Below are positions 27,596 through 53,802 of a stretch of 64,000 nt of DNA, one piece after another. Location: positions 2,120-66,119 of the forward strand of contig REBR01000267.1 in the NCBI GenBank assembly GCA_007692645.1, in the 5' to 3' direction. The stretch comes from Halomonadaceae bacterium (GTDB taxonomy: Bacteria; Pseudomonadota; Gammaproteobacteria; Pseudomonadales; Oleiphilaceae). The stretch's first letter is position 1. The number at the start of each line of letters is the position of its first letter. The notes beneath the pieces were generated by a model, which had not been told where the DNA came from, searched no databases, and saw only the letters and a program-made list of their open reading frames with translations. The translations under genes were made by a program, and so were the position numbers.

Positions 27596-28795
27596 CTAAT
27601 CATCCACTGTAATAACAGACCCTGATATTGGCTGAATACCAGTAACAGGGTCTGACTTTTCTGTATCTGAAGACGGGGATAAAGGCACCAGGTCGCTGCC
27701 ATCCCAGCGCCGGGTTTCGCCAAACACCATGGTAATAAAGTGGTGGTCCGGGACCCCGTGTTTTTCCCGGGCTTTTGCCAGGTCTTTAGGGGGCTGGTCC
27801 AGGGGTTCATCCGCCAGTCGGAAGGTGCCCCAGTGGATGCCTACCGCCCGGTCAGCACGAATTTCCTGCTGGGTTATCACGGCCTCATGGGGGTCAATGT
27901 GCTGAGGGCTCATAAACCAGCGGGGTTGGTAGTCACCGATGGCGATAGCCGCCAAATCGAAAGGCCCCAGCCGTTCACCAATGTCAGGAATGTCCTGGGA
28001 ATAGCCCAGATCCCCGGAAAACCAGAAACGAAAATCGTCACTGACCAGGGCCCACCCACCCCAGAGCGTCTGGTTGCGATCGAACGGAGTTCGCTGACTC
28101 CAGTGTTGTACCGGGGTCAGAATAAACCGCACTTCCCCCAGTAACGCTTCCTGCCACCAGTCCAGCCCTTCTACTCGGGCCTCATCACACTCCGGGACTG
28201 CCTGGCGCACCCAGTCATCCAGCTTCAGGGGCATCATCAGTACCGGCGGTCCGCCGGGTTGCTCGCAGAGTTGGCGAATACTGGGCCGGTCCAGGTGGTC
28301 GTAATGGGAGTGAGAGACGACGACTGCGTGAATATGAGGTAGCTGCTGGGTTGTCAGCCCTGGTGGCTGATGCCGTTTGGGGCCGGCAAAGCCCAGGGGG
28401 GAGGCCCGATCGGAAAACACCGGGTCAGCCAGAATGTTCAGTCCGTTCATCTGCAGCAGTACAGAGGCATGACCGATAAAAGTCAGGCTGACCTCACTGT
28501 GGTTACTGGCCAGGTAGTCCACGGCGGGATCAGTTACCGGATCTGGCAGATCTTCGGGCTCGGAGCGGTCCATATGCACCAGTCTCTGGCGGCGCCATTC
28601 CAGAAAATCCAGCAGGGAAGGGTCAATAAAGCTGTAGTTGTTGCGAAAGCCGCCGTCTTTATGATGATCAGGGCGGGGCTGTTCGTTATCTGGGTTTGTG
28701 GCGCAAGCGAAAAGGCTAAATGATAATGCTATCAATAGCATATGGAGTGAAGCTAAGGTTTTAGATAGGAAGAGATGGGGGGGGCGACAGTGCAT
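27596..28795 (-). CDS. MBL-fold metallo-hydrolase lipoprotein
   Basis: 399 aa. The ATG at 28795 is preceded by AGAGGA. It has a lipobox (LFAC) and the metal motif VVSHSHYDHLD. A C8 tract sits at codons 4-7. Confidence 0.8.
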   Translation of the reverse strand: MHCRPPHLFLSKTLASLHMLLIALSFSLFACATNPDNEQPRPDHHKDGGFRNNYSFIDPSLLDFLEWRRQRLVHMDRSEPEDLPDPVTDPAVDYLASNHSEVSLTFIGHASVLLQMNGLNILADPVFSDRASPLGFAGPKRHQPPGLTTQQLPHIHAVVVSHSHYDHLDRPSIRQLCEQPGGPPVLMMPLKLDDWVRQAVPECDEARVEGLDWWQEALLGEVRFILTPVQHWSQRTPFDRNQTLWGGWALVSDDFRFWFSGDLGYSQDIPDIGERLGPFDLAAIAIGDYQPRWFMSPQHIDPHEAVITQQEIRADRAVGIHWGTFRLADEPLDQPPKDLAKAREKHGVPDHHFITMVFGETRRWDGSDLVPLSPSSDTEKSDPVTGIQPISGSVITVDD

Positions 28796-29036
28796 CTTTT
28801 TCCTCTGTGCCGAGTGCGCGACTCTTTATACTAATGGCTTATCCTGTTCTTTCCCATGATTTTTTGGGGAACTGCTACACCTGGGTTCCGCTGTTCTTCT
28901 AGCTATTTAACAACGGCAGTATTTTTGGGTCGGGGACAATGTGGGCTGACGGCGAAGGTGTAAACACAGGTACTGGCCAGGATTTCTATCAGGCATTGGG
29001 GTATTATTGCCTACTTACAGTAGGGGGAATCTTTAA

Positions 29037-30158
29037 TTGCCAGAACAAAGTCAGGCTCCGGTTCACCATGTCATTACCAGCCCGCTTCCATCCACCACAG
29101 CACTGGAAGAATTTCAGCGATTACTAAGCCGGCGTATCCTGGTGGCTGCCGCTTGGTTAGCGTTGTTTCTGGCCCCCTTGCTCCAGGGGCTGGATTATTT
29201 ATTGAGCCACATGGGGGAGTCATTGTGGTGGCACCATTTTGCCTTACGCTTGGTGGTGATGCTGGTTGCTGGCGCAATTCTGCTGGTGAATTGGCGCTGG
29301 CCCGATGGCCGCTGGCCGCGACCCGCAAGTAAACTGCTGGGTTTGCTGCTAACGGCGGTTGGTTGGAGCCTGTTTATTCTTCATGCCGCCGTTCCAGACG
29401 GGAACCTGGCGGTAACCTCCCAAGGTCTTACCCTGTTTCTGATAGCTGTTGCGGTTCTGGCCACTGGGGGCCTGCGTGACCTGTGGTTGATCTATCTGGT
29501 GCCCGCCATCCTTGCGCTGCTGATATTGCTGGAACGAGGTCTGTTCCTGGGACTACTGCCGGGACACCTGGTTTACCCCTTAATGGCCATGGTGGTGGGG
29601 GCCGTGCTCGCCCAGATTCTGTCTTCGGGCTACCTGAGGCTTCTGGCGGCCCAGGAGGGGCTCAAGCAACATGCCCTGACCGACCCGCTCACGGGACTGC
29701 TTAACCGCCGGGCCATGGATCAGCGTCTGGCCGCAGAGCATGCCCACTGTGAGCGCCATGGTCTGAATTATGCTGTTCTCATGGCAGACCTGGACCGGTT
29801 TAAGCGGGTCAATGATACCCATGGCCATGATGTGGGGGACCAGGTGCTGCGGCAACTCAGCCAGCGACTACTGGCAGCGGTGCGCCAGGAGGACTCGGTG
29901 TCCCGCTGGGGGGGCGAGGAGTTTTTGCTGATGCTACAGGGTGCCAGTGACGAGAGTGCCTTGCAGGTGGCGGAAAAGATTCGCCAGGCTGTGGCAAAGG
30001 AGCCTTTTATAACCAGCGCAGGCTCTCTGACCATTACCGTGAGTCTCGGGGTCGCTCTATATGCGCGCGGCACATCCGTAAACGAGGTGATTGTGCGGGC
30101 AGATCAGGCCCTCTATCAGGCGAAGAATAATGGCCGGAATCAGTCCGTGCTGCTGTGA
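29037..30158 (+). CDS. membrane-bound diguanylate cyclase (GGDEF)
   Basis: 373 aa with a TTG start and roughly six N-terminal TM helices. The GGDEF domain has an intact GGEEF motif and an RxxD I-site (RQEDSVSRWGGEEF). Confidence 0.85.
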   Translation: MPEQSQAPVHHVITSPLPSTTALEEFQRLLSRRILVAAAWLALFLAPLLQGLDYLLSHMGESLWWHHFALRLVVMLVAGAILLVNWRWPDGRWPRPASKLLGLLLTAVGWSLFILHAAVPDGNLAVTSQGLTLFLIAVAVLATGGLRDLWLIYLVPAILALLILLERGLFLGLLPGHLVYPLMAMVVGAVLAQILSSGYLRLLAAQEGLKQHALTDPLTGLLNRRAMDQRLAAEHAHCERHGLNYAVLMADLDRFKRVNDTHGHDVGDQVLRQLSQRLLAAVRQEDSVSRWGGEEFLLMLQGASDESALQVAEKIRQAVAKEPFITSAGSLTITVSLGVALYARGTSVNEVIVRADQALYQAKNNGRNQSVLL

Positions 30159-30170
30159 AGAGCTGAGTGA

Positions 30171-31676
30171 TTAAAACAGCCCCAGCAATGGTCCTGCCAC
30201 CAGGACTACCCACAGACTGATCAGCACCGCCGCCAGCAGGCTGATTAAAGCGCCGGCTTTGGCCATCTGGGCGACGGTCATCTGATTGCTGGCAAACACA
30301 ATGGCATTGGGAGGGGTGGCTACAGGCAGCATAAAGGCGCAGGAGGCAGCCAGGGCCACAGGTAGCAGCAGAGTTAACAATGGCAGCTGCAGGGCCAGGG
30401 CCAGTGAGGCGGCCAGGGGCAGAAGAGTGGCGGCGGTGGCGGTATTGCTGGTGACATGGCTTAACACCATTACCAGGGTAACAATGCCAGCTACCACCAG
30501 CCATTGTGGCTGTCCCGCTAGCCCCTGTAATTCCCCTGCAGCGGTCAGTGCCAGGCCGCTGGCCTCAATGGCCGCACCCAGACTCAGACCACCACCCACC
30601 AGTAGCAAGACCCCCCAGGGCAGGTTGCGGGCAGCTTCCCAGGTCATGAGAAATTGCAGCTGTTGCCAGCGGGCCGGAATCACAAACAGCAACAGAGCCC
30701 CGAGCAGGGCAATTCCCGGGTCCGTCAGTGTCAGCCCGGGCAAAAAGTCCTGCAGTAATGGTCGGCTCAACCAGGCCAGGGCCACCCCCAGGAAAACAAC
30801 AGCCACGGCCTTCTCTGGTCCGCTCATGGGGCCCTGGTCATGACGTTGCTGCAGTAACAGATCACCCAGGCCCTGAATGGGGTGCCGGGAAACCGGATAC
30901 AGTACCCGTGTGAGCAGCCACCAGGCCATAAACAGCAACAACAGAGACAGGGGAAGGGCCATGACCATCCACTGGGCAAAGCCCAGGGTAATGTCGTGGT
31001 GATCCCGCAGGTAGCCTGCCAAAAGGGCGTTGGGGGGAGTGCCGATAAGGGTGGCCATGCCACCAATGTTGGCGCTCATGGCTATGCCCAGCAGCAGGCA
31101 CAGGTTGAGGTGTTTGGGGCCTTGCTCGCCAGTGTCCACCAGGCTCAGCACAGAGAGACCGATAGGCAGCATCAGGGCGGCGGTGGCGGTGTTACTGACC
31201 CACATGCTAAGGCTGGCGGTGGCAATCATGAAGCCCGCCACCACATGGTCCGGTCGGGTGCCGGCAATGGCCAGCACCCACAGGGCAAGGCGCCGGTGCA
31301 GCCCCCACCGTTGCACTCCTTCAGCCAGTATAAAGCCCCCGAGAAACAGAAAAATCAACGGGTTGGCGTAGGGGCTGGCGGCTTCTGCCATGGGTACCAC
31401 ACCCATTAACGGCAACAGTGCCACCGGCAGCAACGCGGTAATGGCCACCGGCAGAGCTTCTGTTACCCACCAGACCGCCATTAGCCCGGTCAGGGCCAGG
31501 GTTCGCCAGGCAGCGACACTGAAGCCGGCTGGCGGTTCTATCAGTAAGAGCCCGATAAACAGTAGCGGTCCGAGAATAAACCCCAGGTGCAGCCGCCAGT
31601 GGGAAAGCCTGGCCCCGGGCCCTGGTTCCGTGGCGGTTTGCCTTGGGTCGTTTTGGGAAGAGAACCGTTTAGCCAC
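30171..31676 (-). CDS. DASS/SLC13-family anion:sodium symporter
   Basis: 501-aa polytopic ORF with paired hairpin motifs (VSNTATAA and SNTATAAT). The GTG start overlaps the upstream ATPase stop by 8 nt. Confidence 0.8.
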   Translation of the reverse strand: MAKRFSSQNDPRQTATEPGPGARLSHWRLHLGFILGPLLFIGLLLIEPPAGFSVAAWRTLALTGLMAVWWVTEALPVAITALLPVALLPLMGVVPMAEAASPYANPLIFLFLGGFILAEGVQRWGLHRRLALWVLAIAGTRPDHVVAGFMIATASLSMWVSNTATAALMLPIGLSVLSLVDTGEQGPKHLNLCLLLGIAMSANIGGMATLIGTPPNALLAGYLRDHHDITLGFAQWMVMALPLSLLLLFMAWWLLTRVLYPVSRHPIQGLGDLLLQQRHDQGPMSGPEKAVAVVFLGVALAWLSRPLLQDFLPGLTLTDPGIALLGALLLFVIPARWQQLQFLMTWEAARNLPWGVLLLVGGGLSLGAAIEASGLALTAAGELQGLAGQPQWLVVAGIVTLVMVLSHVTSNTATAATLLPLAASLALALQLPLLTLLLPVALAASCAFMLPVATPPNAIVFASNQMTVAQMAKAGALISLLAAVLISLWVVLVAGPLLGLF

Positions 31677-34434
31677 CTTGAACGCTTTCCCGGGGGGATT
31701 GAGGGCTTTTTGGCCGTGGGGAGAAGCGTCTCAGTAACCACTTCTCCAACTCCACAATAAACAGCAGTGGCAGAGTCACCATAATAATCAGTAACCAGCT
31801 ATTGCCGGGTAAGGCCCCAGTACCAAACAACTGATGCATAAAGGGCAGATAACTGAAACCCCACTGCAGCAGCAGAATCAGGCCAATGGCACCGGGCACC
31901 CAGGGATTCCCCAGCAGTCCGGCCCGACTGAAAACCGGTAGCAGCAGGTGGCGGCAGTTAATCAGGTAGAACACCTGAGCGGCAATCACGGTGTTGACGG
32001 CAGCGGTCCGCGACTGCTCCAGTGAGAAGCCTGCCTGCTGGTGATAGCGGAAAATCCAGAAGGTGGCAGCCAGTACCAGGGTGGACACCAGCAGTACCCG
32101 CCAGACCAGAAACGGCGTAAAAATCCCTTCCTGGGGGGAGCGTGGAGGGCGCTGCATAATGCCAGGTTCTGGGGGCTCCATGGTCAGCGCCAGGGCCAGG
32201 GTGACTGCGGTTACCATGTTGACCCAGAGAATCTGTACCGGGGTAACCGGTAATGCCATCCCGGCCATTACAGCCGCCAGGATCAGCAAGGCCTGGCCAC
32301 CGTTGGTGGGCAGAATGAACAGCAGGGATTTGCGGATATTATCGTAAATGGCTCTGCCGGTTTTTACCGCTCCGGCAATGCTGGCAAAGTTGTCATCCGC
32401 CAATACAATTTCCGCCGCCTCCCGGGCCGCTTCAGTGCCGCTTTTACCCATGGCCACCCCCACATCGGCACGACGCAGGGCAGGTGAGTCATTCACCCCG
32501 TCACCGGTCATGGCGACCACTTCCCGGGCCTGTTGCAGGGCTTTCACCAGGGTCAGCTTGTTGTCCGGGCTGAAGCGGGCGAAGACATCGGTTTTTTGGG
32601 CCACCTGGCTGATTTCTTCAGTGTTCAGAGTATCGAAATCTTTTCCCGTCAGGCCGTTTTTGCCATCCCCTATACCCAGTTGCCGGCCAATGGCCAGTGC
32701 AGTCCCAAGGTGATCCCCGGTGATCATCTTTACCCGTATGCCGGCGGCATGACACTGCCTGACAGCTTCTATTGCTTCATCCCGTGGTGGGTCTTCCAGC
32801 GCTACCAGACCCAGCAACACCAGGCCCTGCTCGGCATCCTGCTGTTGCAGGGTTGCTTGTGTCTGGTCCTGAATTTTCATGGCGAATGCCAGTGTGCGGC
32901 GCCCCTCCCGGGCAAAGCTGTCCACCAGATCCTGCCAGTGCTGCTTATCCAGAGGTGCATTGCCGCCATTGCCGTCCATGGCATGCTGGCACATCTCCAT
33001 GATGCGCTCGGGGGCTCCCTTTACCAGAATGCGCCCCTGACCCTCTGGGTTATGATCCAGGGTGGCCATGTAGCGGTTTTCAGACTCGAAAGGGATGTGG
33101 TCTACCCGTTGCCAGTGATCACGCAGGGCTTCGCCATCAAGCCCGCCTTTGGCGGCAACGACCAGTAAGGCCGCCTCCATGGGGTCGCCGCTGATGCGGG
33201 TCTCGTTATCGGTGTGCTGGATATGGGAGTCATTGCACAGCAGCCCAGCCTGCAGTAGCTCAAGTAGCGCTTTATCGGGTTCACGGGGGTTATCCTCTAA
33301 CCCCTCAATTTTGCCTTCAAGGGTATAACCGGCACCACTTACCTGGGCCTGCTGACTCAGGGTAGCGATACTGCGCACGGTCATTTCATTGCGGGTAAGA
33401 GTGCCGGTTTTATCAGAGCAGATGACGGTGACTGAACCCAGGGCTTCCACCGCAGGCAACCGGCGCACGATGGCGTTGCGGTGAGCCATGGTCTGAACAC
33501 CCAAAGCCAGGGTAATGGTAATAATTGCTGGCAGGCCTTCGGGTATGGCCGCTACCGCCAGGCCAACGGCGGCAAAAAACATGTCCACGGCAGTTTCACC
33601 CTGAACTTGAGTACCCAGGGCGAAGGTGATGGCTGCCAGTATCAAGATAATCACCGTCAGCTGGCGGCCAAACCGTTCAATGCGCTGCAGCAGGGGAGTG
33701 GCTAACTGGGTGGTTTGTTCTGCAGCGGTGCTGATGCGGCCCAATTCCGTGTGGTTGCCAGTGGCTACCACCAGTGCCTGAGCCCTGCCTGCCACCACCA
33801 GGGTGCCGGACCAGACCATGCCAAGACGGTCCCCCAGGGGTGTCTGCTCTTCCACCGGCCCGGTGTCTTTATCAATGGGCACGGACTCCCCGGTAAGGCT
33901 GGACTCATCGGTACGCAGGCCTTTCAGGGACAGCAGGCGGGCATCGGCGGGAACCCGGTCACCACTTTCAAGTGCGACCAGATCACCAGGCACCAGTTCA
34001 GTGGCATCCAGTTCCTGGCGTTGCCCGTCGCGCAGTACCCGTGCCCGGGTAGACATCATCTTGCGGATACTGTCCATGGCCTGTTCTGCGCGGCCTTCCT
34101 GAATGAAACCGATCAGCGCGTTCACCAGGACCACGGCAAAAATGACCCCTGCATCCAGCCACTGCCCAAGGGCCAGGGTAATCAAACCAGCAACGATCAG
34201 CACATGGATCAGCATGTTGTTGAACTGGCTTAACAGGCGTTTCAAGGGGCCGCGCCTGGGGGGTGCCGGCAAGCGGTTCTCCCCAAACTGGGCCCGGCGG
34301 CGCTCCACCTCCGAGGTAGACAGCCCTTTGGTATCGGCTTCCAGTTTGCTTAGCAGAGACTCCTGGGACAGGCTGTGCCAAGCAGTATGGACGGTATTAT
34401 TGGAAACCTCCTGTTTCCTGGATTTCCTGTCCAT
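31669..34434 (-). CDS. P2-type cation-transporting ATPase
   Basis: 921 aa with TGES, the TM4 motif PEGLPAIIT, phosphorylation site [14 protein letters not shown] and the hinge [12 protein letters not shown]. The start is 3 nt after the stop of the FixK-like gene. Confidence 0.93.
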
Positions 34435-34437
34435 AAC

Positions 34438-35223
34438 TTATTCGCTATTCCGCTGGGAGTGTAGTGAGGCTGCTGGGCCCATGGCCGCAATGGCCTCCAG
34501 TCCGGCCAGATTAAGAATTTCAATGTCGCTGGTATTAACAGCCAGCAGCCCCTGATCCCGGAACTGGCTGAAAGCCCGTGACAGGGTTTCGGTGGCAAGC
34601 CCCAGATAACCTGCCAGGTCCCGGCGCTTCATGGGTAGATGCAGGGTCAGGCGGCTGCCCCCCCGGCGTGACTGACCTTCCGCATATTCCAGCAGAAAGC
34701 TTGCCAGGCGACTGGTGGTGGAACACCCCCGTTCCATATGCAGTAACCGGGTCAGTCGCAGTATTTCATCATACATGCTGTGTATCACAGGGCTGTGAAG
34801 GTGGCTGTCGGACACCTCGGCGGCGGAACAATGACTCGGGCTTTGCTCACTTTCGCCGCCCTTACAGTACAGGCTAGCCAGTTCAGCCGTGGTTAACTGC
34901 CGCACACTGGCGGTATCCAGGGCCATCACAGCACAGAAAGTGGTGCGCCCCACCATGGCGTCAAAGCCGATCAGATCTCCAGGCAGATGAAACCCCAGTA
35001 CCTGCTCGCTGCCGTCTTCATACACCACGTAACTCTTGAACACCCCCGCCATCACCCGATAGGGGTGGCTGAGGGGCTCGCCGGCATGAAACAGGTGTTC
35101 TTTTCTTCGCAGAATGCGGTTTTTGGCGGACGTCAGAGTGGCGGCAACTGGCAGTGATGGAAGGGTAGGGGAAAGGTGTTGAGCTTGCCCTGGAGTGTAA
35201 TGAGCCTGAGGTTGTCCAGCCAT
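34438..35223 (-). CDS. Crp/FNR-family regulator, FixK-type (no N-terminal Cys cluster)
   Basis: The ATG at 35223 follows AGGAAGGA. It has a cNMP-like beta roll (GFHLPGDLIGFDA) and an HTH (RRDLAGYLGLATETLSRAF) with the E--SR recognition residues of FNR/FixK. It lacks the CX2CX5C N-terminal cluster of FNR. Confidence 0.8.
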   Translation of the reverse strand: MAGQPQAHYTPGQAQHLSPTLPSLPVAATLTSAKNRILRRKEHLFHAGEPLSHPYRVMAGVFKSYVVYEDGSEQVLGFHLPGDLIGFDAMVGRTTFCAVMALDTASVRQLTTAELASLYCKGGESEQSPSHCSAAEVSDSHLHSPVIHSMYDEILRLTRLLHMERGCSTTSRLASFLLEYAEGQSRRGGSRLTLHLPMKRRDLAGYLGLATETLSRAFSQFRDQGLLAVNTSDIEILNLAGLEAIAAMGPAASLHSQRNSE

Positions 35224-35330
35224 GATGAGTTCCTTCCTGATGACCGCTAATGAGCAAATGAATGGCGATGAAACGGAACCCAAGTAGAGCCCGTCTGGAA
35301 GGTTAGATTAGCCAGTCACGGAAACGGAAG

Positions 35331-35350
35331 GTATGGGGGGTTCCCCCCAT
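35331..35350 (-). terminator. GC hairpin just downstream of the fixL-like gene (weak terminator or attenuator)
   Basis: TATGGGGGG-TT-CCCCCCATA lies 25 nt after the kinase stop. There is no strong U-run, so read-through into the FixK-like gene is plausible. Confidence 0.35.
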
Positions 35351-35374
35351 AGCTCTGTCCGGCCTGACAGACAG

Positions 35375-36601
35375 TTAAGGGGGTGTTTGCCATGCTGGAG
35401 TTGAGGCTTGTTGGCAGGGCAGGGTAAGGCGAAAAATTGCGCCGCCATGCTGGTTGTTTGAGGCCAGAATCTGTCCCCCGTGCCTAGTCATAATGGAGCG
35501 GCAAATGGACAGTCCCTGCCCCATGCCGTGGGCCTTGGTGGTGAAGAAGGGATCGAACAGCTGATTCATATCCTCTGAATTTATGCCCGGACCATTATCC
35601 CTTATTTCAATGATGCACTGATTCTGGTTCCAGTCTGTTACCAGGCTCAGGATCCGTTCGCCGTTATTCTCATGCATGGCATCAATGGCATTTCTGATCA
35701 GGTTGAAAAGTACCTGTTCGATCTGTGTGCGGTTCAGGAGACAGGGTTTTAAGGGCGTTGAAAGATGTGTTTTCAGGGTTATGTCAGCGCCACGTATTTC
35801 ATGGGCCAGTAACAGCAGCACGTTACTGATCAGCTGGTTGGGTTGCTCCGGAGTCAGTTCCGTCTCTCGCTCCTTGACCAGAAAGCGCCGCAGTTCATTA
35901 ATAATCTCACTGGCACGGCGGCTTTGTTGAAGTATCTGCTCCATGGGACGCTGTAAAACGCTGCTATCCCCCTGACCGCTCTCTATCAGGCAAAGGCAGG
36001 CCTGGGCCGTTGTGTGTATCGCCGTGAGGGGCTGACTGATTTCGTGGGCCAAGCCGGCGGAGAGCTCCCCCATGGAGCCGAGACGGTTCATGTGGGCCAG
36101 TTCCGTAAGCGCCTTGTGAGCTTCCCGCTCGGCTTTTTTTCGGTGACTGATATCCTGCAGAAAGCCCACAAAAAGCTGCTGGCCTTCCAGCGTTAACTCT
36201 GCAATGGCCAGGTTCAGCTCCACGGTATGGCCATCCCGGTGCAGACCAGTGACTTCCCGGCCAATGCCAATAATCTTTTTTTCGCCGGTTTGCTGGTAGT
36301 TGCGGATATAACCGTCGTGATGCCCACGAATGGGTTCTGGCATCAGCATCTTGATATTCTTGCCTACTACCGCTTCGGCGGGGTACCCCAGAATGCGCTC
36401 CGCCGCCGGATTAAATGATTCCACAATACCCCGGTGGTTAATGGTAATGATGCCATCAATGGCATGAGCCACAATGGTCTGGCTGCGCAGGGTCTGATCT
36501 TTCAACTGTTGACGCAGGTGGTGGAAATGATCGCCACGGCTGTCATTTTCACTGTGCTCGTCGGCACCGGCGACCCGGGAGAGAGGAGATGATTCTTCCA
36601 T
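35375..36601 (-). CDS. fixL: soluble heme-PAS sensor histidine kinase, FixL-like
   Basis: 408 aa with no TM segment. The PAS core MLMPEPIRGHHDGYIRNYQQTGEKKIIGIGREVTGLHRDGHTVELNLAIAE aligns with rhizobial FixL heme pockets recalled from memory: [35 protein letters not shown] and ILMPEPDRSRHDSYISRY...IIGIGRIVTG. The H-box is LAHEISQPL, and N and G boxes are present. Confidence 0.85.
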   Translation of the reverse strand: MEESSPLSRVAGADEHSENDSRGDHFHHLRQQLKDQTLRSQTIVAHAIDGIITINHRGIVESFNPAAERILGYPAEAVVGKNIKMLMPEPIRGHHDGYIRNYQQTGEKKIIGIGREVTGLHRDGHTVELNLAIAELTLEGQQLFVGFLQDISHRKKAEREAHKALTELAHMNRLGSMGELSAGLAHEISQPLTAIHTTAQACLCLIESGQGDSSVLQRPMEQILQQSRRASEIINELRRFLVKERETELTPEQPNQLISNVLLLLAHEIRGADITLKTHLSTPLKPCLLNRTQIEQVLFNLIRNAIDAMHENNGERILSLVTDWNQNQCIIEIRDNGPGINSEDMNQLFDPFFTTKAHGMGQGLSICRSIMTRHGGQILASNNQHGGAIFRLTLPCQQASTPAWQTPP

Positions 36602-36878
36602 GAGGCTTTCAGCTCAGTCGTTTGCTACTGCTTGCACAATGCACCCTATAAGAAATGCCCTACAATTTAGAATATCATGGATATCTGTAGGGGATGCAAC
36701 ACCTGAATTCCCGATTGTACGTTGAGGGTCGCAGGTGTGGCTAACTTACAGGGCGCCCCCTTTCACCAGGGCGACAGCAGGGTATTTTAATATGACAGCT
36801 TACCTGTAATGATCGTTGGATGGTTGCAATTGAGCATGCAATACCCCCAGGTAGTGGACCTGTCTGCGGCACTATTCA

Positions 36879-36892
36879 TTGATCCACATCAT
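36879..36892. promoter_or_regulatory. FNR/FixK-type box TTGATCCACATCAT
   Basis: It matches TTGAT-N4-ATCAA at 9 of 10 defined positions. Its centre is about 70 bp upstream of the usp ATG, and a TGTAAT -10 candidate at 36918-36923 puts the box near -42 to -45. The region is shared and divergent with fixL. Confidence 0.5.
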
Positions 36893-36954
36893 ATTGAACA
36901 GGTGCAGGACTGGTTACTGTAATCCCAGATAATGACCATTTTAGCGAGGCTCCC

Positions 36955-37824
36955 ATGACAACGACTATCCAACGACTTGTTACTGCTACCGATTTTTCTG
37001 AAGCGGGCAACAATGCCGCGCTTCGCGGGGCCTATTTGGCCAAGGCCATGGGTGTAGAGACCTTTTGCCTTTGGCATGTGCTGGAACCCGCTGTTGGCAG
37101 GGTGCTGAGGGAAACCCTGGCGTTGTCCCTGAGCCACAAAAAGGATTTCCATGACCCGGTCAGTGAGGCGTTGGCCGCCATGGCCAAGCGCATTGAAGAG
37201 GAAACCGGGATTACTCCCCACACAGAATTTCTCGAAGGGGCCATGACCCAGGTGCTTCCCCAGGCCCTGAAAAAGGGCGACTTATTGGTGATCGGGGCCA
37301 CCGGTAGCCACCGATTCCGGCGCATCATGCTGGGCACCACGGCCCTGCGCATCCTGCAGCGTTGCCAGGTGCCGGTGCTGGTGACCCGGGAAACTGCCGC
37401 CAGCAGCTATCAGAAAGTTCTGGTGGCCACGGATTTCTCACCGTTCTGTGAGCGGGCCATAGAATTGGCGGAAAAGGTGGCTCCAGATGCGGATATCCGT
37501 CTGTTTCATGCCTACCATGCCAGCCATGAAATGGATCTGATTTTTGCCGGGCTCAGTGATCAGGTCATTCAGCAGTACCGGGATAAGGCGAAAATTGAGG
37601 CAGAACAGAAAATGCAACGGCTGAGGGCTTCTCATCCGTCCTTTAATGCAGACCTGTTGCCCGGTTACCCGGTGCCAACCCTGATTGAGCACCTTGAAAC
37701 ACAGCAATCAGACCTGGTAGTGGTGGGCAAGCAGGGACAGGGAGCGACGGAAGATTCTCAGCTGGGCAGAGTGACCCAGCGGCTGTTGAATGAAGGGACC
37801 ACGGATGTGCTGGTAGTCAATTGA
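36955..37824 (+). CDS. tandem-domain universal stress protein (UspE-like)
   Basis: 289 aa with two Usp domains, each ending in a G-x2-G-x9-G(S/T)-like ATP motif (IGATGSHRFRRIMLGTTA, VGKQGQGATEDSQLGRVT). Confidence 0.88.
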   Translation: MTTTIQRLVTATDFSEAGNNAALRGAYLAKAMGVETFCLWHVLEPAVGRVLRETLALSLSHKKDFHDPVSEALAAMAKRIEEETGITPHTEFLEGAMTQVLPQALKKGDLLVIGATGSHRFRRIMLGTTALRILQRCQVPVLVTRETAASSYQKVLVATDFSPFCERAIELAEKVAPDADIRLFHAYHASHEMDLIFAGLSDQVIQQYRDKAKIEAEQKMQRLRASHPSFNADLLPGYPVPTLIEHLETQQSDLVVVGKQGQGATEDSQLGRVTQRLLNEGTTDVLVVN

Positions 37825-37875
37825 GCACAGGTTTCAGACAATATTAAAACCGTTGCAGTCAGGGAGCAGTAAGCA

Positions 37876-39231
37876 ATGCGCGTAACTTTTATGGGTGGTA
37901 CCGAAACCGTGACCGGCTCCCGCTTTCTGGTGGAAAGCGAAAATGCCCGTATTCTGGTGGATTGTGGGCTCTTTCAGGGCTACAAGTGGTTGCGGGAGCG
38001 CAACTGGCAGGCTCCCCTGTTTGATATTGACGGGATCGATGCAGTGGTGCTGAGCCACGCCCACCTGGACCACTCCGGCTATATTCCCAGACTCTATCAC
38101 CTGGGCTACCGGGGGCCGGTTTACTGCCAGCATGCCACACTGGATCTGTGTGGTCTGCTGCTACCCGACAGTGGTTTTATCCAGGAAGAGGATGCCCGCT
38201 TTTTTCATCGTCACCACCTCAGTAAGCATGCCAAACCGGAGCCTCTCTATGACCGGGAGACGGCGGAGAAGAGTCTGACCCTGTTCAAATCCGTGGACTT
38301 CGGTGAAGTTTTTACTGTGGGAGATATGAAGATCCATATACAGCCTGTGGGGCACCTGCTCGGTGCCGGCAGTGTGATTATTGAAGCTGACGGCAAGCGG
38401 ATCGGTTTCTCTGGTGATGTTGGCCGTCAGGATGATCTGTTTATGTATCCTCCGAAGCCGCTGCCGGAACTGGATTTGTTGGTGCTGGAGTCCACCTACG
38501 GAAATCGCCGCCATGAAACCGGTGACCCCTGGGAACAGCTGGCCATGGTGGTGAATGAGACGGCGGCAAAAGGGGGAGTACTGCTGGTGCCCAGCTTTAC
38601 GGTCGGTCGGGCACAACTGATGCAACACATGCTGGTAACCCTGATGGCTGAGAAGCGTATTCCGCAGCTATCAATTTTCCTGGACAGCCCCATGGCCATC
38701 GATGCCTCCCACATTTATAAACGCCATGCCAGCCAGCATCGCCTGAGCGAAGGTCAGTGCCAGTGGATGTGCCAGGGTGTTACCTATACCCGTGGGGTTG
38801 AGGAATCCAGGGCACTGGAGGAAATCCGTTACCCGCATATCATCATCGCCGGCAGTGGCATGCTTACCGGTGGACGTATTCTGCACCACATGAAGCGGCT
38901 AATGGCTAATCACCGTACCACGCTATTGTTTACCGGCTTCCAGGCTGGCGGAACCCGTGGCTCACACCTGGTTAACGGGGCGGAGAGCGTCAAGATTCAC
39001 GGTGAATACATCCCCTGTAAGGCCCGAGTCGCGGTGCTGGATGGGCTCTCTGGCCATGGGGATTATCTGGAAATTGCCGATTGGTTGAAACAGTCAGCCC
39101 TGAAACCCGGTACCCGTATTCAACTGGTCCATGGGGAGCCGGAAGCGTCCGACGCCATGCGCCTCTACCTCAAAGACCACACTTCCTATGAAGTGTCAGT
39201 CGCGCAATATCACCAGATTCTTCGCGTTTAG
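37876..39231 (+). CDS. MBL-fold / beta-CASP RNA-metabolising hydrolase
   Basis: 451 aa with LSHAHLDHSGYIP (HxHxDH), ESTYGNR and a C-terminal GLSGHGD motif, typical of the CPSF73/RNase-J-like beta-CASP family. Confidence 0.85.
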   Translation: MRVTFMGGTETVTGSRFLVESENARILVDCGLFQGYKWLRERNWQAPLFDIDGIDAVVLSHAHLDHSGYIPRLYHLGYRGPVYCQHATLDLCGLLLPDSGFIQEEDARFFHRHHLSKHAKPEPLYDRETAEKSLTLFKSVDFGEVFTVGDMKIHIQPVGHLLGAGSVIIEADGKRIGFSGDVGRQDDLFMYPPKPLPELDLLVLESTYGNRRHETGDPWEQLAMVVNETAAKGGVLLVPSFTVGRAQLMQHMLVTLMAEKRIPQLSIFLDSPMAIDASHIYKRHASQHRLSEGQCQWMCQGVTYTRGVEESRALEEIRYPHIIIAGSGMLTGGRILHHMKRLMANHRTTLLFTGFQAGGTRGSHLVNGAESVKIHGEYIPCKARVAVLDGLSGHGDYLEIADWLKQSALKPGTRIQLVHGEPEASDAMRLYLKDHTSYEVSVAQYHQILRV

Positions 39232-39532
39232 GGCTAAAGGGTGGCCTGGAGACCTGCACATCAGAAATGTCCGCACAACCACTTACTTCCCCCCACTATC
39301 GCCAGCGAGCCCCCTCCGGGTAACGAATTATCCGGAGGGACACCAGACCATCAGTTGGGGCCAGGAGCTGTTTCAGGTTTATACTGGCTACCCACACGCT
39401 GCAACTACTCTCAAGGATGGCACGTAAAGCCAATAGTCGGTTGGGATTTCCCGAAGAGCCCAGCCAGCTTGGTAACGATCAGCCAGCATGAGGGTCATTA
39501 CCCCATGCGCTATTTCTGAGTCAGGAGCTCCC

Positions 39533-40351
39533 ATGTCGACAGTCCCCCGGTTCTTCCCTGTAATGTTAGTGGTGCTGTTTCTCAGTGGCTGCGGTAAACC
39601 CCAGCATGACACTCTGGTGCTGACGGGTTCCAGCACCGTGGCGCCCCTGATCAGTGATTTGGCGGCAGATTTTGAGGCCCTGAACCCGGGGGTTCGGGTG
39701 GATGTACAAAGCGGTGGCAGCAGCCGGGGGCTCGCCGATGTACGCCAGGGAACGGCGGCTCTGGGTATGATTTCAAGGGAGCTGAGATCTGAGGAGTCAG
39801 GCTTGCAGGCCCATGTAATCGCCCGGGATGGCATCAGCCTGCTGGTGCATGCCCGCAACCCGGTGACAGAGCTCTCTGACGAACAGGTGCGTCGGCTGTT
39901 TCGCGGGGAAATTGCCAACTGGCAGGAAGTGACCGATTTCGATGCCCGGGTCAGCATTGTGCATAAGGGGGAAGGGCGGGCTACTCTGGATGTCTTTCTG
40001 GCTTATTTCGCCCTGCATAACCGGGACGTGAAAGCAGATTTGATTGTCGGCGAAAACCAGCAGGGCATTCGCTCTGTGGCGGGCAACCCCGGGGCCATAG
40101 GCTATGTATCTATTGGGTCGGCCAATTATGAGATTGCTCAGGGGGTGCCGGTAAAGGGGTTGGCTATTGCCGGCGTTGCGCCGGATGCAACGGCGATTGC
40201 CCAGGGGGATTATCCCCTGAGCCGCAATCTGAATCTGGTCACTCAGGGGGAGCTAGGGGGGCTGGCGGCAGACTTTGTCGCCTACGCCCGTTCCCCCCAA
40301 GCCCATGAGCGCATTCAGCAGCACTTTTTCACGCCTGTGGTGAACCCCTGA
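39533..40351 (+). CDS. pstS: PstS-family substrate-binding lipoprotein (Pst paralogue)
   Basis: The ATG at 39533 follows AGGAG. It has a lipobox (LSGC) plus GSSTVAPL, GGSSRG and GAIGYVS motifs. The ORF-track start at 39488 is less likely. Confidence 0.85.
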   Translation: MSTVPRFFPVMLVVLFLSGCGKPQHDTLVLTGSSTVAPLISDLAADFEALNPGVRVDVQSGGSSRGLADVRQGTAALGMISRELRSEESGLQAHVIARDGISLLVHARNPVTELSDEQVRRLFRGEIANWQEVTDFDARVSIVHKGEGRATLDVFLAYFALHNRDVKADLIVGENQQGIRSVAGNPGAIGYVSIGSANYEIAQGVPVKGLAIAGVAPDATAIAQGDYPLSRNLNLVTQGELGGLAADFVAYARSPQAHERIQQHFFTPVVNP

Positions 40352-41181
40352 TGAGGGACCAGGTGCTGCGGTTGATAACGGGCCTGGCCGCATTGGTAGC
40401 TGGGCTGTTGCTGCTGCTGATTCTGGCTGAGCTGGTGCGGGCCAGCTGGCCCGCACTGACAGGCCTGCCGGTTAAAGCCTGGTTATTCTCCGGGCACTGG
40501 GCGCCAGGGGATGGCCAGTTCGGTTTGGGGGCCATGTTAGCCTCAAGCCTTGCCGTCAGCGTGCTGGCCCTGGCTATTGCGGCACCGGCGGGGATTCTGA
40601 TCGGCGCCTGGCTGCACCTGAGTGCCCCGGCCTGGATCGCTGTTCCTTTACGGGCCCTACAAGGCGTGATGGCGGGGATCCCTTCCGTGGTTTATGGCTT
40701 TTGGGGCCTGATTACCCTGGTGCCGCTGGTGAACCAGTGGGCGCCCCCTGGGGCGGTTCTGATCACTGCAGTGCTGGTGTTGGCGCTGATGATTCTGCCT
40801 CTGAGTGTGCTGGTGACCGATGCGGCCCTGCATCAGGTGCCGGCCCGCTCACTGCAGGCGGCCAGAGCCCTGGCCCTGTCCCGCTGGGGCACGTTCCGTC
40901 AGGTGATGTGGCCAACGGTGCGGGGCAGCATCGCCAGCGGTGTGGTATTGCAGTTTGGCCGCGCCCTGGGGGAGACACTGGCGGTGTTGATGGTGGCCGG
41001 CAATGTGATTCGCTGGCCGGGCTCCCTGACCGAGCCGGTGCGGACCATTACCGCCAATATCGCCCTGGAAATGGGCTATGCCTCTGGGCTGCATAGCCAG
41101 GTCCTGTTTCTCAGCGGCCTCATCCTGCTGCTGCTGGTGATGGCCTGTATGCTGCTGGTGCGTGGAGGGTTACGGGGATGA
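40351..41181 (+). CDS. pstC: ABC permease PstC-like
   Basis: 276-aa polytopic ORF with an EAA-loop-like RALGETLAV. The start abuts the pstS stop. Confidence 0.88.
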   Translation: MRDQVLRLITGLAALVAGLLLLLILAELVRASWPALTGLPVKAWLFSGHWAPGDGQFGLGAMLASSLAVSVLALAIAAPAGILIGAWLHLSAPAWIAVPLRALQGVMAGIPSVVYGFWGLITLVPLVNQWAPPGAVLITAVLVLALMILPLSVLVTDAALHQVPARSLQAARALALSRWGTFRQVMWPTVRGSIASGVVLQFGRALGETLAVLMVAGNVIRWPGSLTEPVRTITANIALEMGYASGLHSQVLFLSGLILLLLVMACMLLVRGGLRG

Positions 41182-42026
41182 ACCTGACCCAGCGGGACTG
41201 GCTGTTCACCGTCACTGGCGGCCTGTTGGTGTGCCTGGTGTTATTGCCTCTGGTCGCCATGCTGTTTGATCTGTTGCGTTTGGGGTTGCCGGTGCTGGGG
41301 TGGGAGTTTTTACTCACTGCCCCCAGCAACGCCGGACGCAGTGGCGGCATTGCTCCCCTGTTGATTTCCACCGGTTGGATTCTGCTGGTGTGCCTGAGTG
41401 TGGCGGTACCGGTTGGGCTGGGGTGTGCCGTGTTTCTTAATGAGTGGCTATTGCCGGAGTCGCGGCTGTCCCGGGGGATCGGTTTGAGTCTGGATGTGCT
41501 CAGTGGGGTGCCGTCGATTATCTTCGGTCTGTTTGGTTATCAGGTGTTTGCCATTACTCTGGGGCTGGGTTTTTCCATCCTCTCTGGTGGTCTGGCCCTG
41601 GCCTGCATGGTGCTGCCTTTTATCGTCCGTACCAGTCAGCAGTCCCTGGCCGCTGTGCCGGCGGGTTACCGCCAGGCGGCACAGGCCCTGTCCCTGAGCC
41701 AGACCGGCATGCTCTGGCGGGTGGTGCTACCCACTGCCTCCCCGGGGATTGCCGCCGGCGTGGTGCTGGCTACCGGCCGGGCCCTGGGGGAAACGGCGGT
41801 GCTGATTTTTACCGCCGGCTATGTGCTGCGCCAGCCGGATTCCGTGCTGGATTCGGGCCGCGCCCTGGCGGTGCATATTTATGATCTGGCCACCAATGTT
41901 ACCGGTGGCACCAGTCACGGGGCCGCCACGGCCCTGGTGTTGCTGGCGCTGATTCTGATTGCCACCACCAGTGTCCGCTCCGGAGCCGGTCTGTGGAGCC
42001 GCTATATGCTTGAGGAAAAACGATGA
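41178..42026 (+). CDS. pstA: ABC permease PstA-like
   Basis: 282-aa polytopic ORF with RALGETAVL. It overlaps pstC by 4 nt. Confidence 0.88.
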   Translation: MNLTQRDWLFTVTGGLLVCLVLLPLVAMLFDLLRLGLPVLGWEFLLTAPSNAGRSGGIAPLLISTGWILLVCLSVAVPVGLGCAVFLNEWLLPESRLSRGIGLSLDVLSGVPSIIFGLFGYQVFAITLGLGFSILSGGLALACMVLPFIVRTSQQSLAAVPAGYRQAAQALSLSQTGMLWRVVLPTASPGIAAGVVLATGRALGETAVLIFTAGYVLRQPDSVLDSGRALAVHIYDLATNVTGGTSHGAATALVLLALILIATTSVRSGAGLWSRYMLEEKR

Positions 42027-42865
42027 GTCTGACCAGCCCCAGTACCTTTTCCGCTTCGGCGGAGGTTTTACCTGCCCATGATCAGGTTGTTCAGTCGCGG
42101 GCGCCGGTGGTCAGTATTGACCAGGTGAGTGTGTTTTACGGTGACCAATGCGCGATCCAGCGGGCTTCACTGACGGTTCAGCCTGGTCAGCTGATGGCCC
42201 TGGTGGGCCCCAGCGGTTGTGGCAAGACCAGTCTGCTACACAGCATCAACCGGCTAACCGATAGTGTGGCCGGCTGCCGTGTAACGGGCGAGACCCGGGT
42301 CGGGGAGTTGGCGGTGAACGCACCGGCCACCTCACTGCGTGAGCTGCGGACCCGTATTGGCATGGTCTTTCAGCAGCCCAATCCTTTCCCCCTGTCGGTG
42401 GCCGACAATATCCGCTTTCCCCTGAAGGAGCATGGTCTGCGCAATAAGCAGGCACTGAATCAGCGGGTAGAGCAAAATCTCCGAGCCGTGGGGTTATGGG
42501 ATGAGGTTAAAGACCGGCTGCAGCAATCGGCCTTGTCACTTTCCGGTGGCCAGCAGCAGCGCCTGTGCCTGGCCCGGGCCCTGGCCATGGAACCTGAGGT
42601 GCTGCTGCTGGATGAGCCCTGTTCGGCCCTGGACCCGGTGGCTACAGAGACCATCGAACAACTGATTCGCAGCCTGAAAGGGCACTACACGGTGCTGATG
42701 GTGACCCACAACCTGGCACAAGCCCGGCGCATAGCCGATGCTGTCACGGTGTGTTGGGTGGATGAAGGCTGTGGCTGTGTGGTGGAAACCGGCTCCCGGG
42801 AAGCCATCTTTGTCAATTCCAGTAACCCGGTAACCCGGGCTTATTGCAGTGGTGAAAAAGGCTAG
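42023..42865 (+). CDS. pstB: ABC ATPase PstB-like
   Basis: 280 aa with Walker A (GPSGCGKT), the PstB-typical MVFQQPNPFP, LSGGQQQRLCLARA, LLDEPCSALDP and VTHNLAQA. It overlaps pstA by 4 nt. Confidence 0.93.
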   Translation: MSLTSPSTFSASAEVLPAHDQVVQSRAPVVSIDQVSVFYGDQCAIQRASLTVQPGQLMALVGPSGCGKTSLLHSINRLTDSVAGCRVTGETRVGELAVNAPATSLRELRTRIGMVFQQPNPFPLSVADNIRFPLKEHGLRNKQALNQRVEQNLRAVGLWDEVKDRLQQSALSLSGGQQQRLCLARALAMEPEVLLLDEPCSALDPVATETIEQLIRSLKGHYTVLMVTHNLAQARRIADAVTVCWVDEGCGCVVETGSREAIFVNSSNPVTRAYCSGEKG

Positions 42866-43266
42866 TGCGGTTGGTTCGAAAGGGTAGCGCGGATTAATTG
42901 CAGCAGATCCCGGGCTTCAAAGGGCTTGCCCATCACGGTCACCGCTCCGGCATTCAATGCCCGCTGAACCAGCGGGTTATGGGGTTGCGCGGTCAGGAGA
43001 ATGGTCGATGCCGGCCAGAGGCGAGCCTGCAGCTGTTCCTGCAGCTCAGCACCATTGATATCCGGTAAGTGGATATCCAGCAGCAGACAGCAGGGTTGCT
43101 GTGGCTCGATAGGCAGTTGGTCCAGGAAGTCACTGCCATGGGCAAACAGGTGAACCTGCCAGCCACAGGTGTGCAGAAGCAATTCCAGTGAATCCCGTAT
43201 GGCACAGTTATCCTCCACCACATAAATCAGTGGCACCGGGTCCTGGATTGAAAGGGGGCTTTTCAT
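42862..43266 (-). CDS. single-domain response-regulator receiver (FixT-like candidate)
   Basis: Receiver fold only, with VVEDN, phospho-acceptor context LLLDIHLPD, then LTAQ and GKPF. No output domain. The protein contains four Cys. The start is ambiguous (43266 ATG, 43317 ATG or 43344 GTG). Confidence 0.8.
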   Translation of the reverse strand: MKSPLSIQDPVPLIYVVEDNCAIRDSLELLLHTCGWQVHLFAHGSDFLDQLPIEPQQPCCLLLDIHLPDINGAELQEQLQARLWPASTILLTAQPHNPLVQRALNAGAVTVMGKPFEARDLLQLIRATLSNQPH

Positions 43267-43353
43267 GGTGGTGTTATGGTCCTGGCACCCGACGTTTGAG
43301 GGCTGTATACGCTCCATTGAACCGGGTTGCTCACCGGATGACACTGACCGTCA

Positions 43354-43977
43354 TCAATGTTCCTGCTGATGCTTTAAAGCCACTTGTTTTTTTACCAGAT
43401 CTGCTGCAGTTCTAAGGGCCAGTTTCTTCATCGCCCGACCCCGGTGCACCTCTACGGTTCGCTCACTGATACCCAATTCCAGGGCGATAACTTTATTGGC
43501 CTGGCCGTCTGCGGCCAGGCGTGCAACCTCAAGCTCTCTGGGGCTCAGCAGGGCAATACGCTGTTGCCATTGGGCATCCTGATTTGCCAAAGCCAGTTGT
43601 TGCCGATGCTGTTCGGTGGCATTACAGATAATGTCCAGTAAGGCCTCCCGGTCGAAAAGCGGCTTCTCCAGAAAATCCATGGCTCCCTGTTTCAGGGCAT
43701 TCACCGCCAGGGGCACCTGGCCATGGCCGGTTAAAAAGACTATGGGCAGCAGGCACCTCTCCGCCTGCAATTGTGCCTGAACATCCAGGCCGCTGACCCC
43801 GGGCATATGGATATCCAGCAGCAGACAGGCCGGGCCGGTTGGCCGGGGAGCGGCGAGAAAATCGCTGCCTGAGCTGAATTGCTGCACGGTCAGTCCGGCA
43901 CCGTGCATCAGCAGTGTCAGCGCTTCCCGTACAGCGTCATCATCATCCACAATTACCACGTGGCGAGTTTCGGTCAT
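43354..43977 (-). CDS. fixJ: FixJ-family response regulator (REC + LuxR HTH)
   Basis: 207 aa with IVDDDDAVREAL, LLLDIHMPGVSG, FLTGHGQVPLAV, DFLEKP, LSPRELEV and ISERTVEVHRGRAMKK. It aligns closely with S. meliloti FixJ as recalled. Confidence 0.85.
   Translation of the reverse strand: MTETRHVVIVDDDDAVREALTLLMHGAGLTVQQFSSGSDFLAAPRPTGPACLLLDIHMPGVSGLDVQAQLQAERCLLPIVFLTGHGQVPLAVNALKQGAMDFLEKPLFDREALLDIICNATEQHRQQLALANQDAQWQQRIALLSPRELEVARLAADGQANKVIALELGISERTVEVHRGRAMKKLALRTAADLVKKQVALKHQQEH

Positions 43978-53725: not shown

Positions 53726-53802
<77 letters not shown>

Follow-up and report, generated by a model that had tools for sequence, protein, structure and literature searches.

A candidate FixLJ-FixK low-oxygen signalling and survival locus in a Halomonadaceae bacterium

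Results

The 64,000-nucleotide (nt) stretch of Halomonadaceae bacterium DNA analysed here (contig REBR01000267.1, positions 2,120 to 66,119; hereafter the window, with positions counted from its first letter) carries, between 29037 and 43977, genes for a FixL-like histidine kinase, a FixJ-like response regulator, a FixK-like Crp/FNR regulator and a receiver-only protein that is FixT-like by position. The same interval encodes a P2-like P-type ATPase, a DASS-family permease, a tandem universal stress protein (Usp), a beta-CASP nuclease, a set of PstSCAB-like proteins and a GGDEF diguanylate cyclase. Families were assigned by listing the open reading frames (ORFs) and searching them with Pfam and NCBIfam profiles, and every gene that a first-pass annotation of this DNA had listed was recovered in place and in the family named there. 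Comparison of the locus with its relatives leads us to read it, with a probability of about 60%, as a chromosomal FixLJ-FixK(-FixT-like) module for low-oxygen signalling and survival.

The kinase gene (35375-36601, minus strand) encodes a protein of 408 aa with a single PAS domain, followed by the HisKA and HATPase_c domains found by Pfam. Since its N-terminus is hydrophilic, the kinase is predicted to be soluble, which agrees with its earlier description as a soluble heme-PAS-type histidine kinase. The PAS domain matches the heme domains of Sinorhizobium and Bradyrhizobium FixL (PDB 1d06 and 1dp6) with an E-value of ~1e-27, DosP being a weaker structural match (2e-17), and the kinase is 41% identical to Bradyrhizobium FixL (BjFixL). 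The alignment runs through the heme pocket: H95, in 'GHHDGY', falls on the proximal His200 of BjFixL, in 'RSRHDSY', and R115, in 'IIGIGREV', falls on BjFixL Arg220, in 'IIGIGRIV', the residue that contacts bound O2. Both residues are invariant across an alignment of 23 homologues, as is the phospho-accepting His (H186), and the kinase is predicted to bind heme and O2. Most FixL relatives are longer (510-640 aa) and carry one or two additional N-terminal PAS domains, which the window protein lacks. The protein collection that we searched holds entries 100% identical to the window FixL and to the nuclease described below. In the alignment of homologues, alphaproteobacterial FixL proteins (P0018, P0060, P0090 and P0110) repeat the heme-pocket pattern MPxPY..HD.YL ... 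IGIGR in each of two PAS domains and appear to have two heme-PAS-like domains.

Next to the kinase gene lies the fixK-like gene (ORF 34438-35283, minus strand). Its true start is probably ATG 35223, giving a protein of 261 aa, as judged by alignment with L001, the closest relative locus, where FixL is 76% identical to the window FixL. The regulator contains the Pfam domains cNMP_binding and HTH_Crp_2 and aligns both to residues 59-244 of Aliivibrio FNR and to FixK2 (PDB 4i2o). There is no Cys in its N-terminal 35 residues and an Arg stands at the position of FNR Cys122, and the alignment to Aliivibrio FNR thus bears out the earlier view that this Crp/FNR regulator lacks the FNR Cys cluster. 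The E--SR signature of the recognition helix is kept ('ETLSR', aligned with FNR 'ETISR').

About 7 kb from the kinase gene, where a FixJ-type REC-LuxR regulator followed by a receiver-only protein had been proposed, we found both. The FixJ-like regulator (43354-43977, minus strand, 207 aa) combines Response_reg with a GerE/LuxR-type helix-turn-helix domain and is 50-57% identical to the FixJ proteins of other gammaproteobacterial loci, whose genes come immediately after fixL. The receiver-only protein (ORF 42862-43344, minus strand; probably 134 aa from ATG 43266, from the alignment with L001) is a single Response_reg domain with the acidic pocket, the phosphorylatable Asp, the Thr and the Lys all in place. 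Its best NCBIfam match is the receiver region of FixJ, and at the DNA level a 66-nt stretch is 71% identical between the receiver-only gene (43025-43090) and the fixJ receiver (43763-43828), a likeness consistent with an origin of the receiver-only gene by duplication of the fixJ receiver. An iron-sulphur protein of the Caulobacter FixT type was rejected for this gene product, whose four Cys residues are scattered and form no CxxCxxCxxxxC motif. The four-Cys motif (C53, C56, C59 and C64) is peculiar to Caulobacter FixT (PMC7078487).

In most of 23 related gammaproteobacterial loci, which include Vreelandella, Halospina, Aquisalimonas, Natronospira, Wenzhouxiangella, Ectothiorhodospiraceae and Lysobacterales, the genes form a compact fixL-fixJ-(receiver)-fixK cluster on one strand. 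There, fixJ directly follows fixL, whereas its counterpart in the window lies 7 kb off, and the receiver-only gene sits between fixJ and fixK. Judged against these loci, only the lineage of the window and L001 has fixJ and the receiver gene separated from fixL and fixK. The two separate regulatory arms described in the first-pass annotation are thus a real layout, but one produced by a lineage-specific rearrangement of a compact, widely conserved cluster.

Where might the FixK-like regulator act? A scan of the window for TTGAT-N4-ATCAA with at most one mismatch returned a single match, TTGATCCACATCAT (36879-36892, plus strand), which lies 62 nt before the ATG of the tandem usp gene; chance alone would supply about 1.25 such matches in the whole window. 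In L001, usp is preceded by TTGATCCAGATCAT, also 62 nt ahead of the start, and the FNR/FixK-type box that had been noticed at this gene is therefore conserved. The spacer between fixL and usp measures 353 nt in the window and is only 69% identical to that of L001 overall, yet it contains a second element, GACTGGTTACTGTAA (36908-36922, plus strand), that is identical in the two loci. The centre of this element lies ~31-34 nt from the centre of the box, a spacing found in class II FNR-type promoters, and GACTGGTTACTGTAA is likely the -10 region of a usp promoter of that class. About 100 nt of the same spacer (36630-36727) are absent from L001 and contain neither an ORF nor a match to an Rfam family; a search of 22-47 kb with Rfam returned no RNA family.

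When two mismatches were allowed, the window yielded 22 matches against 18.5 expected by chance, and such matches were used only where a relative keeps the site. One of them is a degenerate box, TTGATGACGGTCAG (43344-43357, minus strand), ~84 nt upstream of ATG 43266 of the receiver-only gene, with TTGATGGCGGTCAG at the corresponding position of L001. In three loci of the Wenzhouxiangella/Lysobacterales group (L013, L014 and L023), the receiver-only gene has a box with one mismatch ~80 nt ahead of it, and FixK boxes precede fixL in L008 and L021. This layout, with boxes at the receiver-only gene and at fixL, matches the feedback arrangement known from Caulobacter. In a metagenome-assembled genome of Aquisalimonas (L009; 5449-8116 and 11798-12434), FixK boxes near fixL and fixJ precede genes for a class II ribonucleotide reductase, a phosphoribosyltransferase and Hsp20, which are gene kinds also of the Burkholderia lxa locus and the DosR regulon.

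A different element lies ahead of fixK. The palindrome TATGGGGGGAACCCCCCATA (35332-35351, minus strand) precedes the fixK ATG by ~118 nt, and its conservation extends to L001. In 15 of 18 related loci, TAAGGG-N4-CCCTTA occupies the equivalent position with no more than three mismatches, and in seven of these the match is perfect. The published FixJ site of Sinorhizobium meliloti is TAAGTAATTTCCCTTA, and an 18-bp palindrome has been inferred for Rhizobiales and Caulobacterales (PMC4999443). We read the palindromes upstream of fixK as candidate FixJ sites of this same type. Besides the fixK site, a scan of the window found no further FixJ-type palindrome.

Directly downstream of fixK, the genes for the ATPase (31669-34434, minus strand, 921 aa) and the DASS-family anion:Na+ symporter (30171-31676, minus strand, 501 aa) follow on the same strand. 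As annotated before, the ATPase start lies 3 nt from the fixK stop and the ATPase and DASS genes overlap by 8 nt; the overlap is real, since no in-frame start other than GTG 31676 is available ahead of the first membrane helix of the DASS protein. Packed in this way, the three genes are predicted to form one operon. The DASS protein scores 291 bits with TIGR00785 (cut-off 198.6). No FixK box was found between fixK and the ATPase gene in five loci, the window and the related loci L004, L005 and L087 included. A FixK-dependent ATPase was dropped on these grounds, and the ATPase and DASS genes are most plausibly transcribed together with fixK.

The ATPase has the Pfam domains Cation_ATPase_N, E1-E2, Cation_ATPase and Cation_ATPase_C, matches the Ca2+ pump LMCA1 with E=9e-174 and carries 'CSDKTGT' as well as 'IPEGLPA' in transmembrane helix (TM) 4. 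It reaches none of the NCBIfam equivalog cut-offs, all Ca2+-ATPase models included. Its TM6 reads 'NMVTAVTLA', against 'NLVNDSLPA' in LMCA1, with Ala at the position of the cation-ligating Asp. Among 125 aligned members of the ATPase family none has the TM6 Asp: nearly all have Ala and the Pseudomonas aeruginosa protein has Ser. The TM6 motif LWVNM[IV]TAVTLAL is near-invariant in the family and PEGLP of TM4 is kept. A canonical Ca2+ pump of the SERCA/LMCA1/CtpF type was rejected for want of the TM6 Asp, and both the Ca2+ analogy and the JGI name 'magnesium-transporting' appear doubtful for this family.

Members of the family are encoded, besides the window, in L092 (3926-6634) and in L004, L005, L006, L021 and L087. 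The closest homologue, at 69% identity, is that of L087, and the protein collection has no 100% match. The ATPase gene directly follows fixK in L004, L005 (Vreelandella utahensis) and L087, and it lies near the fixK cluster in L006 (Halospina) and in L021 (a Wenzhouxiangella). Because the adjacency recurs in these related loci, the link between fixK and the ATPase gene is conserved and probably ancestral. L087 also has genes for a phosphoketolase and a class 3 fructose-bisphosphatase upstream of fixL (106-3847), and a second Crp/FNR gene with hemN downstream (14757-18706), a gene content that suggests a larger low-oxygen neighbourhood.

Outside these clusters, P. aeruginosa encodes beside lasR-rsaL-lasI a homologue that shares 53% identity with the window ATPase and that we take, from the PAO1 gene order, to be PA1429. 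A box of the TTGA-N6-TCAA type, TTGAGACAGGTCAA, lies ~60 nt upstream of PA1429, and this gene has been tabulated among the low-oxygen/Anr genes (PMC8575079). An Azospirillum homologue adjoins pflAB, and a betaproteobacterial one is flanked by a Na+/H+ exchanger gene and Mrp genes. From this last context and from the overlap with a Na+-coupled DASS gene, one might speculate that the pump handles monovalent cations.

On the opposite strand, between the two regulatory arms, lie the tandem usp gene, the nuclease gene and the pst-like genes, all present as Pfam or NCBIfam families in keeping with the earlier annotation. Usp (36955-37824, plus strand, 289 aa) consists of two Pfam Usp stretches, with the motif G-x2-G-x9-G-T in the first domain, and its orthologue in L001 is 67% identical and in the same place. 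The nuclease gene (37876-39231, plus strand) begins 51 nt downstream of usp and encodes a 451-aa beta-CASP metallo-beta-lactamase (MBL) protein of the RNase J/TTHA0252 type with the domains Lactamase_B, Beta-Casp and RMMBL. Homologues 63-73% identical occur in many gammaproteobacteria, and the closest are those of Cellvibrionaceae and Microbulbifer, not of Halomonadaceae. Over its full length, the nuclease is also 46% identical to an MBL protein of an lxa-type locus in Burkholderia sp. FXe9, a locus that we recognised by its genes for a BCAM0308-family protein, FtsH, ribonucleotide reductase, Usp, Fnr, SulP and Hsp20. The 170 nt ahead of the FXe9 MBL gene contain two FNR-type boxes, and ten such boxes are found in 41 kb there.

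The nuclease also occurs in a second kind of setting. Orthologues (65-73% identity) in Microbulbifer, Zobellella and a metagenome contig (L084 4366-8356, L085 5380-10766 and L086 121-2393) lie near genes resembling thymidine phosphorylase and/or phosphoribosyl pyrophosphate synthetase, a grouping that looks like a conserved small module. A tandem Usp adjoins the nuclease orthologue in both genomic loci, those of Microbulbifer and Zobellella.

The PstS/PstC/PstA/PstB-like genes (39488-42865, plus strand) comprise a PstS-like lipoprotein gene, probably starting at ATG 39533 and encoding the lipobox LSGC, followed by genes at 40351-41181, 41178-42026 and 42023-42865. With the NCBIfam models, PstA passes (220.8 bits, cut-off 193.45), and PstC (189.1, cut-off 196.45), PstB (313.2, cut-off 343.2) and the PstS family (157, cut-off 206.6) remain just below. 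The block is absent from the corresponding position in L001. In the ~300-nt spacer upstream of it, an 8-bp GC-rich hairpin without a T-run (CCCTCCGG-N12-CCGGAGGG, 39312-39339) might serve as an attenuator or processing site and so determine if the usp transcript extends into the pst-like genes.

The GGDEF cyclase proposed at the left edge of the locus was recovered as a membrane-anchored protein of 373 aa (29037-30158, plus strand; GGDEF domain E=6e-50) with a GGEEF motif and an RxxD I-site five residues upstream of it. Its gene is convergent with the DASS gene. A different PAS-GGDEF gene follows the ATPase gene in Vreelandella utahensis, a weak hint of a link between such cyclases and the locus. 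Within the window, no FixK box with at most one mismatch lies upstream of the pst-like genes or of the GGDEF gene, and we found no cis evidence that ties either to the Fix regulators.

The surroundings of the locus are those of a chromosome. On one flank lie genes for an S41 peptidase (44113-45492), a metallophosphoesterase (45500-46228), a peptidyl-prolyl isomerase (46232-46735) and glutaminyl-tRNA synthetase (46870-48555), and on the other those for DauA (23208-24962), MiaE (22431-23078) and AcnB (19664-22363). L001 has, on one strand, the genes for the isomerase, the metallophosphoesterase, the S41 peptidase, FixJ and the receiver, then usp on the other strand, then fixL, fixK, a DauA-type SulP gene and miaE, so that the position of the regulators and usp agrees between the two. 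Compared with L001, the window has two additional blocks: 37876-42865 (nuclease and pst-like genes) and 24963-34437 (subtilase, MBL-fold hydrolase, GGDEF cyclase, DASS and ATPase genes). The subtilase (S8 family, 804 aa, plus strand) and the MBL-fold hydrolase (399 aa, minus strand) are encoded at 25122-28795, between DauA and fixK; two antisense ORFs there (25485-26840 and 26862-27548) have no family matches and are probably not genes. A tRNA scan, a repeat scan and a check for integrase-like ORFs at the locus borders returned nothing, no compositional step was seen, and a megablast search against plasmids found no similar plasmid DNA. Four tRNA genes (Pro-TGG, Arg-TCT, His-GTG and Leu-TAG) are located at 53614-54139, ~10 kb off, and border neither variable block.

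Discussion

How would such a module work? When O2 falls, the soluble FixL would autophosphorylate and pass its phosphate to FixJ. Phosphorylated FixJ would then bind the palindrome at 35332-35351 and switch on the fixK-ATPase-DASS operon (35223-30171). As FixK has no Fe-S cluster, its activity would be set mainly by its amount; it would bind the box at 36879-36892 and turn on usp, with the beta-CASP nuclease gene expressed by read-through. FixK probably also activates the receiver-only gene, whose product would exert negative feedback on FixL/FixJ in the manner of Caulobacter FixT. In the slowing cell, the ATP-driven pump would probably maintain ion gradients and anion (dicarboxylate) exchange as respiration declines, and Usp and the RNase would support growth arrest.

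Several observations weigh against this reading. (i) None of the curated cut-offs for the regulators is reached: the kinase scores 308.8 bits with the NCBIfam FixL model NF041777 (cut-off 850), the best match of the REC-GerE regulator, the FixJ model NF006900, stops at 191.8 bits (cut-off 255), and the Crp/FNR regulator reaches the cut-off neither of FixK nor of Fnr. The receiver-only protein reaches no equivalog cut-off either. These models were built on alphaproteobacterial proteins, the FixL model in particular on longer rhizobial proteins whose N-terminal part the window kinase lacks. (ii) The box at the receiver-only gene has two mismatches and overlaps the fixJ coding sequence, including its stop, so that its conservation is partly forced by coding constraint. 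(iii) The palindrome of the window and L001 keeps its dyad but has AA changed to GG on both arms relative to the other loci. A terminator scan flags the same positions as a hairpin just after fixL, and the palindrome may be the fixL terminator instead of an activator site; for this reason its role as a FixJ site is one that we infer. (iv) No FNR-type box lies near the nuclease orthologues of Microbulbifer, Zobellella and the metagenome contig. Since such box-less pairs occur elsewhere, the pairing of usp with the nuclease is older and broader than Fix control. (v) The position of BjFixL Arg206, which contacts a heme propionate, is Asn in the window kinase ('YIRNY', with an Arg one residue earlier).

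This last substitution bears on the signal itself. The cascade could operate as proposed and yet report nitric oxide, carbon monoxide or redox state, or the PAS domain could bind no heme at all, in which case the locus would be a module for nitrosative or redox stress. For this speak the Asn at the Arg206 position, which varies between R, H and N across the family, alphaproteobacterial homologues included, the absence of the N-terminal PAS domains of the longer relatives and the fold that FixL shares with other heme-PAS sensors such as DosP. Set against this, the proximal His and the O2-contacting Arg do not vary, and the FixL heme domains are by far the best match. Homologues of the cargo are, moreover, low-oxygen genes elsewhere. 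We regard a signal other than oxygen as unlikely.

A second question is how much of the locus belongs to the module. It could be that only the four regulators form a functional unit, with the transporters, nuclease, usp and GGDEF genes as ordinary neighbours and the usp box a chance match. L001 keeps the regulators and usp and has no nuclease, pst-like, ATPase, DASS or GGDEF gene at the locus; one box with a single mismatch is about what chance would supply in the window, the pst-like and GGDEF genes have none, and nuclease-usp pairs exist without any. The usp box has nevertheless kept its position and sequence in L001 within a spacer that has otherwise diverged. In addition, the ATPase gene begins 3 nt after fixK and directly follows it in three other loci, and low-oxygen sets include a homologue of the ATPase in Pseudomonas and one of the nuclease in Burkholderia. 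Thus a unit restricted to the regulators seems to us slightly less probable still than a change of signal.

Least probable is the reading, after the first-pass annotation, of the locus as a horizontally acquired 15-kb island with an undescribed hypoxia or dormancy regulon and a novel output set: the two blocks that are extra relative to L001, the nearest nuclease homologues in Cellvibrionaceae and Microbulbifer and a literature search that found no paper on FixLJ-FixK in Halomonadaceae speak for it, but the flanks are housekeeping genes syntenic with L001, the regulators sit in conserved chromosomal context, the borders show no tRNA gene, integrase, flanking repeat, GC deviation or plasmid match, the widespread fixK-ATPase adjacency is probably ancestral, and papers already describe the cargo families, in the lxa locus and the Anr set, and draw the parallel with DosR.

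What, then, is left that might be new? Tentatively, and against rather long odds, the fixL-fixJ-(fixT-like)-fixK-ATPase arrangement could be an undescribed cassette conserved in halophilic and alkaliphilic Gammaproteobacteria, in which a pump of a widespread family without the TM6 Asp is placed directly under FixJ. If that pump were a monovalent cation exporter induced at low oxygen, it would keep up a Na+ or proton gradient when respiration fails, and the gradient would keep Na+-coupled dicarboxylate transport by the overlapping DASS protein running. A large orphan family of ATPases, encountered repeatedly in hypoxia regulons, would thereby gain a function.

Under the FixLJ-FixK reading that we prefer, a cascade studied mostly in Alpha- and Betaproteobacteria would exist as a conserved cluster in Gammaproteobacteria of salt and soda lakes as well, hard-wired there to an orphan P-type ATPase family that is also part of the Pseudomonas low-oxygen set. 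The locus offers an entry point to two questions, namely what this ATPase transports and why unrelated hypoxia regulons recruit a pump, a Usp and a beta-CASP RNase. We consider the ATPase family the most useful lead from the locus.

How does the locus compare with known systems? It shares with the FixLJ-FixK-FixT cascade of Caulobacter and the rhizobial cascades a heme-PAS kinase, a FixJ-type regulator, a Cys-less Crp/FNR protein and a single-domain receiver that are encoded together, a palindrome upstream of fixK and candidate FixK boxes at the receiver-only gene and, in relatives of the window, at fixL. It differs in its gammaproteobacterial host and in a FixL with one PAS domain and no membrane anchor, and the receiver keeps the canonical phospho-Asp without the four-Cys Fe-S motif of Caulobacter FixT. 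Moreover, neither cbb3 oxidase nor fixGHIS genes lie nearby in the window, and a P2-like ATPase occupies the fixK operon instead.

With the Anr set of P. aeruginosa the locus has the ATPase family in common, in the form of PA1429 (53% identity, the PEGLP and LPTNGG motifs, no TM6 Asp). Anr senses O2 by its own Fe-S cluster, whereas the window appears to delegate sensing to FixLJ, and the window ATPase gene is predicted to be co-transcribed with the regulator gene. A tandem Usp of P. aeruginosa, PA4352, is reportedly required for anaerobic survival.

The DosRST system of Mycobacterium tuberculosis is a functional analogue, with a heme-based kinase, a LuxR-type regulator and a cargo of Usp proteins and a P-type ATPase (ctpF). 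Its sensor is a GAF and not a PAS protein, it has no Crp/FNR tier, and in TM6 the window ATPase is without the Asp that a Ca2+ pump should have. The likeness to DosR that had been suggested for the locus was thus a reasonable intuition, but one already in print for another locus with the same cargo families (PMC3721108, PMC12071387).

That locus is the lxa locus of Burkholderia cenocepacia. It encodes six USPs and, side by side, an Anr-like CRP regulator and a two-component pair. Among its other genes are those for a sulphate-transporter-family protein, ABC transporters, a cation-transporting ATPase, Hsp20, ribonucleotide reductase and a 'metal-dependent RNase'. It has a TGA-N6-TCA motif, and its authors likened it to the DosR regulon (PMC3721108). 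A 2025 review places FixLJ-FixK above the lxa locus and lines the latter up with the Anr and DosR sets (PMC12071387). The window shares with it USPs, a CRP regulator, a beta-CASP MBL RNase, a P-type ATPase, ABC transporters and FNR-type boxes, one of them at the window usp gene. The lxa locus is larger (~50 kb, 50 genes, six USPs) and also holds genes for ribonucleotide reductase, polyhydroxyalkanoate metabolism, Hsp20 and nitroreductase that are absent from the window; the FixLJ genes lie elsewhere in its genome, and the Crp regulators of an lxa-type locus and the window are only 31% identical. The cargo that had been called non-canonical, and the system that had been called undescribed, therefore have a precedent in the same gene families (PMC3721108, PMC12071387). 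Of the proposed hypoxia or dormancy regulon built from Fix regulators, a low-oxygen or stasis output remains the most likely, and the claim to a new output set is not supported. The locus adds a further example to a known type of low-oxygen survival locus, and its regulatory logic is not new.

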